From: an uncultured Methanosarcinales archaeon | Lineage (GTDB): Archaea > Nanobdellota > Nanobdellia > Woesearchaeales > CALCXY01 | DNA length: 45,231 bases | Direction of reading: 5' to 3' | Assembly (NCBI GenBank): GCA_964385185.1 | Contig: CAYLOA010000006.1 | Span: forward strand, 1-45,231 | In this document: positions 15,001 through 18,000 of the stretch, piece after piece | Position numbering within the stretch: the first letter of the stretch is position 1 | Layout of the letters: each line of letters starts with the position of its first letter | Position numbers: made by a program

Positions 15001-18000
15001 TAAAGTAGGTGGAGGGACTCACAGAGTCCCCACTCTCGCAGTCTTTCGACTGCGAGTAAGTGTTTGCACCACTAGGCTTTGCCTTTGCATTTCAGGGTAA
15101 TGTCCTGAAATGCAGAGAGGCCGGTGCTCTGTGAGCACCATCAAGTCTAGTGGAGTCACAGCAAAGGTTATAAATGGCTTAGAGTTAACAAATTCTTAAG
15201 GGCCCATGGTCTAGTAGCTATGACATCGCCTTGACTTGGCGAAGATCCCCGGTGCAATTCCGGGTGGGCCCATAGTTTTAATAGAAAACCTTAAAAAAAG
15301 TCTAGGAATCATATTCTATACGCCCTTGTAGCAAAGTAGCCAACGCGTCACATTGGTAACTTCAAGCTTGGCTTGACGGCTTGGAACGAAGTTCAAAGAT
15401 GTGGAGATCCCGAGTGCAAATCTCGGCAAGGGCTTGGAAACGGTTGGGTATTATTACCCTACCGTTTTTCCACTTTTCATTCTAATTTGCAGTTTTATCA
15501 TAATTACTACTCTCTTTAACTGTATAACCAGCTTCTAAGAATTGTAATATATAAGGATAGAATTTACATTGTTGGACAGCTAAGCATCTTCCTGATAAAC
15601 CAATATTCTTCTCTTCAATAAAGATGGGGAAGTCAGAACAGGTCTTAGGTCTATCTTTATGTGTATGAATGATGCATTTATTATCTTTAAGACAGGTACA
15701 ACAATTCTTAGGTCACGCAGATATTAGTACAACAACAATCTATACTCACGTACAACCAGAAGATTTAATCAGTCAGATGTGGGAGTAAAATTCTCTATTT
15801 ACTAGAAATCATCGTCTTTTTTACCTTTATTTACATCTATAAAAATGATGATATGTTCGTTTTGCAGCCTCTAATTTAGGAATGAGATTTTTCCGTTCTA
15901 TTAAGTCATGCACTAACTCATGAGGAACACTTAAATCTAATTCTTTTACATACAGTAATTTAGCTGGATTCAGATTTTTTTGCGTCATTGTACTAAATGT
16001 AATCACACTTTCAATCCCTTTATAATTAAAAAACTGTGTAAATGAACGTCCTGAGCTTCCAGTTTCGTGACTTCCTGTGCCCTTACTATAGTGTTCACGG
16101 TATGTAAAATCATTAATTGATACAACAGAATGTGTTGTGAAGAGTCTAGTTCCCCAACTATTCATCTTATGATTTCCAGCTAATACTTGATACTGCTTAT
16201 GTTCATATTGGCGTAATTTTTCTTCTATCTCTTCAATGAGCAGTCTAGTCCTTTCTACATCATTTACTGGTTTTTCTAATCTACTCAGTCTGTCTTTTTC
16301 TTTCCGCACTTTACTTGCTTCATCATCAACAAACTTTTTGTGTGCTTTTTCAACATGGTCATCTATGGAACTCATAGTATTTGAAGTTTTATTGGCATTT
16401 ATAAATATAAGGTAAATTGGGAAAGTTTCTATACTGTACCACTATAGCATTCATCCTATTACTTTCCTATTTGACGTAGTATAGGAATGTTTTTATATGT
16501 CTTTTAAACAATTGTGTAAGTTGATATTAGGGGGTATAAAAGATGAAATGTAAACATTGTCAAAGACTGCCTGACCTTTTTGTCTAATTTTTTTACCAAT
16601 GCCTATTTTATCAAGAATTTCTAAACCTGAAGGCCATAGAAAAATAGAAAATCCAATGGTATCAAATCTAGGAGCATTATCAATGATAGTAATTTCATGG
16701 TCTTTTTCAAGAAAGTGGCAAGCTGCTAAGCCTGCAATGCCTGCGCCAACTATTAGGATTTTCATATCTTAATGCCCATACTTACCTGCTATATTAGCAA
16801 GTAATTGAACAAATGTTGCTACTCCTGATAATGCTAGTAATATAAACACATAGAATGCATACGGACAATAAAAGTGGAAAAATAACACAATCATTGCCAT
16901 CCAAACTCCTGTACACCAAGGGCAAGAAACTAATTGAGTTACTTTCCTCCTAATCCCTGATTTAGGACAGTGTCTTACAATTTTCAACATACCTGATTTT
17001 TTGTCTTTCTTTGTAACTTTATCTAAAAATAAGTCTCGAATAAATTGAGCAATTTTATCATAGACAAATAATCTAATTAATCTATATATTGCTAATACGA
17101 GTATAACAAATTCAAAAACAGTAACTGATAAATCTTTATTTCTTAAAACGTAAATGCCACCAATAACTAAGAGTGTCCATATTAATGTAAACACAGCAGC
17201 CATGATTTGTTCATCAGAAGATTCTATTTTCTCAACATTCAAGTTTGTCATATAGATACTCTAGAATCTATGTTATATAAATATTAGCATCAAGTCAGTA
17301 AGTTTTTATAAATCGAAGATATACTGATAGTATGACTTTTTTTCAGCCTCAATCGGTAACAAGAGCATGTCAAGCGACAACTCTTGCTATGATTATTTAT
17401 GGTTCAGCGATATTACCTTCTACTGTGAAAAAATCAGTAGATCACGTAAGTAAAGTCATGTATTCTATTGGAGTTGGTGTAGTAGAATCTTCTATGCATC
17501 ACATGTATACTTCTCACATTCTTCCTGAATTACAACATCAGGTTGATAATATATTACAAGAGGTAGGGAAAAAATATTTCGAGAGAGCATTGAGAAATGA
17601 ATTGTATAGAAGAGCACATCCAGAAAAACTATTTATTTAATCCTAATAACTTCCAAATTCCTAGGAGCATTTGTCTCAATTCTAAACCCTTTATGGATAC
17701 CAGAAGCTAAATCAAGACAAGCTTTATTCTCTCCGTGATTAAGAATGACTTTCTTAGGTCGAGGAGTTACATTTTGAATGTATTTCATTAATTGAGCTCT
17801 GTCTGAGTGGTTACTTACTTCTAATCTGTGGACTTCCATGTTTAATTCAATCATTTCAGTCTTATTTCCTTCTTTGAAGATTAATTCCCTTTGACCATTC
17901 ATAATCTTTCTTCCCATACTTCCTTCTCCTTGATAACAGCTAAACACTAATGAATGTTTTTTATCTGAAGCTAGATTTTTAAGATATTCAACAGATGGAC

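Follow-up and report, generated by a model that had tools for sequence, protein, structure and literature searches.

Analysis of a 45,231-nt stretch of archaeal DNA (hereafter, the window) and of the genome from which it derives revealed approximately 65 units of a system of small, strongly folding repeats built of interchangeable hairpin modules. On balance, these units are probably non-autonomous elements of the REP/BIME/MITE type that are selected to fold as single strands and are homogenised between copies. The only properties conserved among them are a fold on one strand, with loops C-TGT-G, GNRA and CTAATGG, and a few fixed stems; mobility, a single-stranded intermediate and an enzyme are what we infer. 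An earlier note on this DNA had described structured, G+C-rich intergenic mosaic repeats resembling REP/BIME, and this description was confirmed by the folds, copy counts and mosaics presented here.

The genome studied (G000) is that of a tiny marine archaeon and comprises 1,297,047 bp in 85 contigs, with 35.4% G+C and a marker completeness of 100%. At positions 15005-15153 of the window, a family A unit on the minus strand and an abutting family C unit on the plus strand were found to fill the space between two divergent TATA boxes. The G+C content of 15000-15199 is 46.5%, compared to 27-35% in the flanks. Read along the minus strand, the A unit (15005..15058; nhmmer 52.1 bits) consists of hairpin 1 with an invariant 9-bp stem and loop GAAA (15056-15035), the linker AGTG (15034-15031), hairpin 2 with the free stem GGGACT/AGTCCC and loop CTGTG (15030-15014), and a pyrimidine-rich tail (15013-15005). 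The plus-strand C unit (15069..15153; nhmmer 67.3 bits) is a Y-shaped structure of three helices, in which P1 pairs 15069-15079 with 15143-15153, P2/P3 forms a long hairpin (15081-15121) with a 2-nt AG bulge and the loop GTAAT (CTAATGG in most C copies), and P4 (15123-15139) has the free stem GGTGCT/AGCACC and loop CTGTG. The minimum free energy was -29.7 kcal/mol (z -5.70) for the A unit folded from 15056 to 15005 of the minus strand and -49.7 (z -7.33) for the C unit folded over 15069-15153 of the plus strand, and 0 of 200 shuffles folded as well in either case. The A unit starts approximately 29 nt further upstream of a TATA-like box (14968..14976, minus strand) that precedes by 32 nt the ATG, at 14944, of an AI-2E family transporter gene (13898..14944, minus strand; PF01594, 2.3e-53), the 5' end of which faces the unit. 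On the other side, 15 nt separate the end of the C unit from the downstream TATA-like box (15168..15175, plus strand), itself located 32 nt before tRNA-Val(GAC) (15200..15272, plus strand), which likewise faces the unit with its 5' end.

Elsewhere in the window, a second family C copy (24053..24132, minus strand) lies between two plus-strand genes and is antisense to both, and a pair of family B copies (1194-1311) is situated between two tRNA genes. The left half of this pair (1194..1242, plus strand; covariance model 66.8 bits) forms a bulged long hairpin with an inner free stem and the loop CACAG on the plus strand; the right half (1263..1311, minus strand; 66.6 bits) has its loop as CTGTG on the plus strand.

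Throughout the genome, family A was represented by 20 canonical copies and five variants. Iterated nhmmer detected 22 copies (20 full and two partial), the core pattern with at most two mismatches detected 20 sites, and three further apex variants were obtained from a list of G+C islands. Family B had 26 copies by nhmmer and 25 strong copies by a covariance model built on 7 of the 26, and family C had 15 copies by nhmmer. The earlier count of 15 for family C thus stood, and those of 24 for A and 23 for B were revised. Compensatory stem changes, also claimed previously, were seen in the alignments of all three families, with double changes in 23 of 34 pairs for C (15 copies), 6 of 16 pairs for A (19 copies) and 8 of 17 pairs for B (12 of the 26 copies, those above 40 bits). 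Pair columns of family C included G-U in 13 versus A-C in 3, indicative of strand-specific folding. The stem of A hairpin 1 was identical in 19 of the 20 canonical copies, with a compensated change in the 20th, and a GNRA loop was present in 18 of 19 A copies. The closing stem of B bears a 3-nt bulge, and in closing stems the outer pairs vary freely in sequence while staying complementary.

The module reported as common to the families, a free stem closed by C-TGT-G, was borne out, with the qualification that family B carries it inverted, with loop CACAG on the strand matched by the B profile. Families A, B and C were upheld, but a division into three is incomplete: a fourth family, the twin hairpin D, was found nested in either orientation within CTGTG/CACAG loops of A or B (all three G000 copies and the copy at L009, a metagenome locus of a different, related organism), and the apices of A hairpin 1 are swapped among copies, one bearing the C loop CTAATGG. 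By eye, no single cut position relative to CTGTG was common to the four D insertions. Copies at unrelated loci were identical over 43 nt in two cases (C21 and C24; C10 and C25). Mosaics occurred much as described before, with BA or AB seven times (including one A variant and one D-carrying B) and C adjoined by A or B four times. In 15 of 15 neighbour pairs a CACAG module comes first and a CTGTG module second, a fixed chirality, and both units point outward to the flanking genes. The inner stems of BA partners differ (composites read by eye), and the partners are therefore unable to pair with each other. Perfect G+C-rich 6-bp hairpins numbered 252 in G000 versus 76 in G001, a genome of the same genus. 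The elements match no Rfam family, in agreement with the earlier note: only tRNAs were detected in the whole window at gathering thresholds, only tRNAs and one sub-threshold chance match in 14850-15500 at E<=1, and nothing on the elements in 28 kb of B-superfamily loci at E<=1.

Placement of the units was assessed against our own crude gene calls (ORFs of at least 95 aa, and tRNAs). By this approach, 58 of 63 units lie between genes, as had been claimed for all copies, and the remaining five either lie at a contig end or are overlapped by an ORF, the start of which was probably called too far upstream. The genome is leaderless, with TATA-like words most frequent at -34 to -30 relative to the ATG (258 versus 8-49 in other 5-nt bins; upstream regions of 519 genes). 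Element edges lie a median of 80 nt from the facing ATG, and at 40 nt or less in only 5 of 66 cases; in these leaderless genes the elements precede the TATA box and are outside 5' UTRs. At least one promoter-facing gene start was present in each of 48 occupied gaps, and 0 of 43 occupied gaps were convergent, though such gaps make up 14% of intergenic bases (0.86^43 = 0.0015). The reported tendency of copies to precede a gene in that gene's own orientation was not supported as such. Same- versus opposite-strand counts in tandem gaps were 13:5 for A and C and 9:5 for B, and became 18:14 in total when read by module sense; the bias is mostly a consequence of geometry, chiefly of divergent gaps, in a leaderless genome where elements lie upstream of core promoters and never in convergent gaps. 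Orientation relative to the upstream gene was mixed. An association with tRNA genes was considered and dismissed, as 5 of 48 gaps touch a tRNA gene and no enrichment was judged by eye given gap length.

Comparison with relatives revealed gain or loss of units. No nhmmer match to families A to D was detected in G001 over 1.44 of its approximately 1.6 Mb. Of 12 syntenic gaps, 10 were devoid of a G+C-rich hairpin in G001 and shorter (2 versus 125 nt, 88 versus 240 nt), and two contained unrelated G+C-rich hairpin elements; the G001 flanks were too diverged to align with G000. By contrast, L009 carries B(D) and A in the orthologous cysE gap, where the flanks are collinear with G000 (mean column identity 76% over the whole two-sequence alignment, A included) and a single clean 92-nt indel corresponds to B(D). 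Hairpin 1 of A and its AGT linker are identical at 25 of 25 positions between the two organisms. In the hairpin-2 stem, 3 of 6 pairs are exchanged, all with compensation, and the linked flank is changed as well; both stem versions are found elsewhere in G000, and the sequences point to copy replacement or gene conversion. A candidate target-site duplication was seen at the edges of B(D) in L009, as an imperfect direct repeat of 7-8 nt (AAATTTGA / AAATTGA); by eye, other copies had no flanking duplications. The B closing stem around twin-hairpin cores was found in 11 other Woesearchaeales genomes among 400 (12 of 401 with G000) and is part of an order-wide Y-shaped superfamily, with no conserved neighbour gene across 15 loci. 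Neither the exact A core in GTDB species representatives nor the A and B patterns in viral contigs gave a match; a single match of the B pattern among the GTDB representatives, in the bacterium Oceanobacter, was taken as chance. The claimed absence from relatives applies to A, C and D in G001 and not to the organism of L009, which has A, B and D; the families are not strictly species-specific, and the view that they are young was not supported.

Within the species, all elements were present in 22 metagenome loci, and no element-removing joint was detected in four other DNA runs at 80% likeness or above (window 1-20000), consistent with the lack of insertion polymorphism noted before. The sequencing runs listed for window 14500-24499 numbered 22, all of DNA. 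An apparent C>A variant at 15122 and joints near elements were ascribed to cross-mapping from other copies or tRNAs.

Candidate mobilising enzymes were sought in G000. No match to Y1_Tnp (PF01797, RAYT family), nothing convincing for rve, TnpB Zn-ribbon or RT, and no multicopy protein gene were detected in this genome. Its single DDE_Tnp_1 gene (C58) has terminal repeats unrelated to families A to D (0 nhmmer matches at E<=1). Y1_Tnp matches were present in 132 of 401 genomes of the order, including the unpublished G315, and in 6-7 of the 11 genomes with the B pattern, a weak enrichment. We rejected an association of the B superfamily with Y1 transposases, since the genes for the latter lie apart from the elements and have hairpins of other kinds; the Y1_Tnp gene of G027, for example, is flanked by unrelated hairpins of its own. 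The recombinases of G000 are two XerA-like proteins and one further integrase. The XerA-like pair scored 192 and 207 bits on the integron-integrase model (cut-off 265, in two stretches) and 209 and 225 bits on the XerA model (cut-off 220), and Xer-like paralogues are also found in G001, which lacks families A to D.

Bacterial REP, BIME and REPIN sequences are mobilised by RAYT, a Y1 HUH transposase, and REPs favour 3' ends and convergent gaps. The G000 units are similar in that they are short, G+C-rich extragenic palindromes in many copies, form mosaics from few unit types in fixed relative orientation, keep their hairpins by compensatory change, use loops as insertion targets, and belong to lineage-restricted families that are stable within populations. 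They differ in the absence of a RAYT or Y1_Tnp gene from G000, in having no invariant GTAG or CGTC flank in the A, B and C alignments (GTAG occurs inside the B 3' arm, solely in copies with TAC triplets), in numbering about 65 rather than hundreds, and in lying beside promoters and never in convergent gaps; their pairs are inverted in 15 of 15 cases but have differing stems (BA by eye) and form no single long hairpin as in REPINs.

Integron attC sites are folded single-strand substrates of IntI that are recognised by structure rather than sequence. Like attC, the G000 units have a closing stem with extra-helical bases (the 3-nt bulge of B) and a variable terminal structure, from triloop to branched twin hairpin, and Xer-like tyrosine recombinases are encoded in the genome. 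Unlike attC, they form no cassette arrays and are dispersed between housekeeping genes, an R-box consensus was not seen by eye, and the recombinases do not reach IntI-level scores (192-207 versus a cut-off of 265).

The units resemble MITEs in their small size, intergenic location, lack of coding capacity and fold-back structure, in a closing stem that behaves as terminal inverted repeats do, and in their presence or absence between relatives. They differ from MITEs in that no parent IS has the same ends, the only DDE transposase of G000 having other terminal repeats, in the lack of clear target-site duplications, and in closing stems whose outer pairs are free yet complementary and modules that recombine. 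A MITE census places a Woesearchaea genome among the highest archaeal MITE densities (PMC11602168), and a preprint states that REPINs were not detected in archaea (bioRxiv 10.1101/2021.07.10.451892).

In the mechanism that we propose, units would be copied, nested and overwritten by one another while single-stranded, either as ssDNA at forks or transcription bubbles or as an RNA intermediate, and propagation or retention would be restricted to copies that still fold. Stems could then be free but complementary because only folding copies were propagated or kept. Selection against striking genes or core promoters would confine the units to 20-60 nt upstream of the TATA box. That the units are non-autonomous mobile elements is supported by the dispersed identical copies, nesting, apex exchange, gain or loss between relatives, and the indel and stem replacement in the cysE gap, as well as by strand-specific folding of C, avoidance of convergent gaps and the reported MITE density in Woesearchaea. 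It is weakened in that no mobilising enzyme, insertion polymorphism or clear target-site duplications were found, and by the preference of bacterial REPs for the 3' ends and convergent gaps that the G000 elements avoid. Compensatory changes in DNA palindromes can also arise without selection, through template switching, which weakens it further. A host function could equally account for the perfect retention of A hairpin 1 between species and for the fixed chirality of all 15 pairs.

A more elaborate possibility, of which we are doubtful, is an order-wide, long-lived system of hairpins folding in single strands that would be copied, nested and homogenised by an enzyme other than HUH/RAYT. One candidate is a tyrosine recombinase of the Xer-like kind, which would use folded hairpins as substrates in the way that IntI uses attC, and the units may be partly domesticated as promoter-side insulators in these compact genomes. 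Traces of such machinery may be seen in the bulged closing stem of B, the fixed chirality of pairs and the stem replacement at an orthologous locus.

It is unlikely that the units serve the host as transcription barriers, acting in nascent RNA or the non-template strand to shield closely spaced leaderless promoters from read-through and from transcription in the divergent or antisense direction; family A would then be a hairpin followed by a U-rich stop. The promoter-facing starts in 48 of 48 occupied gaps and lack of convergent ones, the location just upstream of TATA boxes, the outward orientation of all pairs, and the retention of A hairpin 1 (25/25) between species with diverged flanks would all fit such barriers, as would the A tails, which are pyrimidine-rich (0.68 versus 0.50 in background) and have a run of at least five T in 6 of 20 cases (background rate 0.10). 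Such runs were found near 0 of 25 B and 1 of 15 C units, however, and a terminator reading was rejected for these two families. Orientation in tandem gaps is also inconsistent, G001 copes without units in the same gaps, and the approximately 65 units would serve only a few percent of about 1,175 gaps.

Independent genes for small structured RNAs, either multi-copy trans-acting or protein-binding, are quite improbable. The very stable folds (z -5.7 and -7.3), the GNRA loop of A and the G-U over A-C asymmetry of C are as such genes would predict, conserved loops on free stems are reminiscent of protein-binding RNA hairpins, and TATA-like words are often present 15-30 nt upstream of B units (by eye, no control). 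These points are opposed by the spacing of head-to-head pairs, whose 11-81 nt leave no room for two archaeal promoters, by the lack of terminator T tracts in B and C, of Rfam matches and of the families in same-genus G001, and by nesting and module swapping, which are unusual for RNA genes.

We consider it very unlikely that the units are double-stranded DNA sites, possibly extruded as cruciforms, with fixed loops and stems as a recognition code for a chromatin, recombination or topology protein. Negative supercoiling accumulates between divergent promoters, where units are located, and the near invariance of A hairpin 1 and the three recombinases of G000 would suit such sites; but free half-sites with a conserved 3-5 nt spacer are unfit for a dimeric dsDNA-binding protein, the asymmetry of C argues for a single folded strand, and the recombinases score as XerA, under the integron-integrase cut-off, with paralogues in the element-free G001. 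Cis-regulatory 5'-UTR RNAs of the genes that follow, a reading that the same-strand placement in the earlier note would suggest, are extremely improbable. Many copies do point to a gene start 35-195 nt away, and two or three C copies lie in operon junctions with no TATA box before the next ATG. Against this, the genome is leaderless, few elements come within 40 nt of an ATG, 10 of the units in tandem gaps run antisense to the genes on either side, and the genes that follow are of unrelated kinds, among them a transporter, tRNAs and cysE.

Repeats of the REP/REPIN type are considered a speciality of bacteria, and most of what is known of MITEs in archaea comes from censuses. The 1.3-Mb DPANN genome described here is otherwise stripped of mobile DNA and retains about 65 costly G+C-rich hairpin units that display a modular grammar, strict pairing chirality and signs of concerted evolution, with no resident transposase. 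The families make good strain and lineage markers, and in DPANN genomes they give rise to false calls of 'novel ncRNA'. Discovery of an enzyme would reveal a new route for structure-guided copying of DNA or RNA in archaea, and discovery of a host role would explain how neighbouring promoters are insulated in archaeal genomes that are leaderless and gene-dense.

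The G+C island at 15000-15199 of the window (46.5% G+C, compared to 27-35% on either side) was found to hold two repeat units at a spacing of fourteen bases. A family A unit runs on the minus strand from 15056 to 15005 as a 9-bp hairpin (loop GAAA), an AGTG linker, a 6-bp hairpin (loop CTGTG) and a pyrimidine-rich tail. The family C unit (15069-15153, plus strand) is Y-shaped: helix P1 forms its outer part, and within it stand a long hairpin with a bulge and a short one that again has a CTGTG loop. Minimum free energies were -29.7 kcal/mol (z -5.70) for the A unit and -49.7 kcal/mol (z -7.33) for the C unit, and none of 200 shuffles did as well in either case. 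The pair occupies the whole space between two divergent TATA-like boxes, which precede the start codon (ATG) of an AI-2E transporter gene (box at 14968-14976; PF01594) and a tRNA-Val (box at 15168-15175) by 32 nt each. Elsewhere in the window, family C recurs at 24053-24132 (minus), and two tRNA genes enclose a B-B pair (1194-1242 and 1263-1311). Two long tRNA genes, presumably intron-bearing, were detected by Rfam and missed by ARAGORN (15322-15434, plus, 113 nt; 1356-1473, minus, 118 nt). The left end of the contig has a tyrosine integrase of 327 aa (3-983, minus; PF00589, 1.5e-7) next to tRNA-Glu, and a 39-aa C-terminal integrase fragment (15681-15758, plus) lies about 250 nt past the two tRNA genes at 15200-15434; both are possible remnants of elements integrated at tRNA genes, near the hairpin repeats.

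Across the genome under study (G000; 1,297,047 bp, 85 contigs, 35.4% G+C, 100% complete by marker genes), family A was found at 20 sites by its core pattern (at most 2 mismatches) and in 22 matches by iterated nhmmer (20 full and 2 partial), family C in 15 matches, and family B in 26 nhmmer matches. Seven B copies served to build a covariance model, which detected 25 strong sites (46-70 bits) and scored the opposite strand of the same sites at just 22-25 bits. Double compensatory changes were present in 23 of 34 pairs for C, 6 of 16 for A and 8 of 17 for B (12 of the 26 copies aligned), in agreement with the pair and covariation figures of the earlier note. Strand asymmetry was apparent in family C, where G-U occurred in 13 pair columns compared to A-C in 3. 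Perfect G+C-rich 6-bp hairpins numbered 252, compared to 76 in the same-genus genome G001, and included 28 TGT and 28 ACA triloops closed by C-G, each on 11-12 different stems. Taken together, these counts, the covariation and the hairpin census revealed that the structured repeats proposed in that note are real and go far beyond chance. By itself, compensatory change argues only weakly for selection, since template switching can let palindromes correct themselves.

The three families initially described were all recovered, and a fourth was added to them. Family D is a twin hairpin (~51 nt; 3 copies in G000, on contigs C3, C39 and C8, and 1 in a relative), and every copy was nested, in either orientation, inside the CTGTG/CACAG loop of an A or B unit. 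The first hairpin of A has a constant base (CTC...GAG) and an apex that is swapped in five variant copies, one of which carries the loop CTAATGG otherwise typical of C. Family B has the shared module in the opposite sense on the strand matched by its profile. All 15 neighbour pairs (seven BA/AB, four BB, two BC and two AC; spacers 11-81 nt) read from a CACAG module to a CTGTG module on either strand, such that units always point outward. The BB, BC and AC pairs differ in spacers and stems and, thus, are not all copies of one composite. Directly upstream of a B-A composite is a tandem array of ~54-nt units (C27, ~14041-14300), which an assembly gap (Ns) interrupts.

Placement was examined on our own ORF calls (1,421 ORFs, 90% coverage) and ARAGORN tRNAs. 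By this approach, 58 of 63 units were assigned to 43 gaps, with 24 tandem, 19 divergent and none convergent. Convergent gaps number 225 in this genome (71 of at least 40 nt) and hold 14% of net intergenic bases, giving by our own arithmetic a chance of 0.86^43, or about 0.0015, for this outcome. G000 is essentially leaderless: upstream of the 519 genes with at least 90 nt of upstream sequence, TATA-like words showed a sharp maximum at positions -34 to -30 relative to the ATG (258 in this 5-nt bin compared to 8-49 in others). The distance from element edge to facing ATG had a median of 80 nt and was 40 nt or less in just 5 of 66 cases. Thus, the units lie upstream of core promoters and not in 5' UTRs, and this geometry effectively excludes a 5'-UTR role. 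In tandem gaps, same and opposite orientations were 13 to 5 for A and C units and 9 to 5 for B units, and 18 to 14 overall by module sense; the same-strand bias previously claimed is no real strand rule. A distinctive tail was found for family A alone and not in B and C units: the A tails had a pyrimidine fraction of 0.68 (background 0.50), and 6 of 20 had a run of five or more T residues (background rate 0.10).

Exact A and B patterns were not found in viral contigs, nor in one genome per GTDB species aside from a single bacterial match to B, which we take as chance. In JGI and ENA metagenome contigs the A core was detected at 23 loci, of which 22 are from the same species (at least 99.5% identical), with every element unchanged or one base different. 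The remaining locus, L009, is from a different, related organism (tblastx identity 67-91% to G000 contig C25). Its gap upstream of cysE is collinear with that of G000 (mean column identity 76% for the alignment as a whole, with the A element) and contains a clean extra block of 92 nt, a B unit with nested D. The first hairpin of A and its AGT linker were identical at 25 of 25 positions, while 3 of 6 pairs of the second stem were exchanged, all compensated, together with a linked linker base and the 3' flank; both stem versions are common elsewhere in G000. Such orthologous stem replacement would be expected if other copies in the genomic pool replaced this one or converted it, and point mutation would not easily produce it. 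The perfect conservation of A hairpin 1 across species and the strict chirality of pairs could equally reflect a host function: insulation of promoters by the units appears unlikely, sRNA genes less likely still, and a role as sites in duplex DNA is the least probable of these.

A tiny ORF rich in Cys codons, closely followed by the cysE-like acetyltransferase gene and then cysS, is kept in three organisms (MSTNCCC at C25 ~4340-4396 of G000, outside the window; MSTNCCCK at L009 ~1043-1069; MQKVNCC at G001 locus L027 ~1330-1353). It looks like a Cys leader peptide and suggests attenuation-like control in a DPANN archaeon.

G001 is distant from G000 (median protein identity 59%), and families A-D had no nhmmer match in the 1.44 Mb searched. 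At 10 of 12 syntenic gaps G001 was without a G+C-rich hairpin and had fewer bases between the genes than G000 (for example, 2 vs 125 nt, 88 vs 240 nt and 103 vs 176 nt), and at the other two it had unrelated G+C-rich hairpin elements. A separate hairpin (CCTTGGGTTT ... ) is present upstream of the same gene in both genomes (G000 C2 ~18360-18400; G001 locus L072 ~3880-3925) within gaps that are otherwise unalignable; it is not one of the repeats and may be a conserved regulatory RNA.

Weak matches to the B model in G027, another Woesearchaeales genome, led to a family of at least 11 copies with the same closing stem as B (CACCACNACTGG ... CCAGTGGTG, 3-nt bulge) around a twin-hairpin core, the stems of which are again free and covarying. 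This B-type stem pair (at most 1 mismatch, 10-90 nt between arms) was detected in 12 of 401 Woesearchaeales genomes, in at least 9 families and usually in 1-2 copies each; a reversed control pattern gave one match in each of 4 genomes, and at least one B-type match (genome G340) looks like coding sequence. For these elements no Rfam match was found over 28 kb at E<=1, nor a common neighbor gene across 15 loci. The simple B of G000 resembles a Y-shaped element in reduced form. Thus, lineage restriction applies to sequence families A, C and D, and not to the architecture and B scaffold, which are old or widely exchanged.

Candidate enzymes were also surveyed. G000 has no Y1_Tnp or rve, only a 19.8-bit zinc-ribbon match to TnpB, a 17-bit match to RT, and no multicopy protein that we could find. 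Its single DDE_Tnp_1 gene is on a 3-kb contig, and the terminal repeats of this gene are unrelated to A-D. An AT-richer hairpin repeat in five copies (C14:1772, C27:8801, C37:2828, C40:3171 and C58:2003), with a core GAGATTTTCAATYCCTCAAA and then a stem closed by TTTGAG, is similar to 'TTCAATCCG' elements, and one copy lies within the right end of this only DDE transposase element, where it makes up the inner part. Two XerA-like recombinases (209 and 225 bits on the XerA model, cut-off 220) score under the integron-integrase cut-off, and Xer-like paralogues are present in G001 too; the integrase at window 3-983 is a third, besides fragments. Y1_Tnp is frequent across the order (132 of 401 genomes, with the unpublished G315 counted in) and occurs in 6-7 of 11 genomes with the B-type stem by our own comparison of genome lists; it is not adjacent to B-type elements and in G027 is flanked by its own, different hairpins. 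One G027 locus (L199; C26:68238-71600) has a Y1 HUH transposase gene with the same hairpin (CGGGGCAGAGCCCCG) on both sides in the same orientation, an arrangement in a Woesearchaeon like the classical one of IS200/IS605 or RAYT. The G000 assembly is in 85 contigs, and thus an unassembled mobile gene is possible.

A full-text search found no literature on intergenic hairpin repeats in Woesearchaeota. REPINs are stated as undetected in archaea in one preprint (bioRxiv 10.1101/2021.07.10.451892), and a MITE census puts the density in a Woesearchaea genome at 105 MITEs per Mb (PMC11602168). The nesting of D, apex swapping, chirality rule, leaderless-promoter geometry, orthologous stem replacement and order-wide B scaffold are new. 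The best-supported explanation, which we consider modestly probable, is that the repeats are REP/BIME- or MITE-like, non-autonomous and obliged to fold as one strand; we infer their mobility itself, its intermediate and its enzyme. Copying, nesting and overwriting would take place among such repeats, and the narrow stretch ahead of leaderless promoters may be the sole tolerated place in which they survive.
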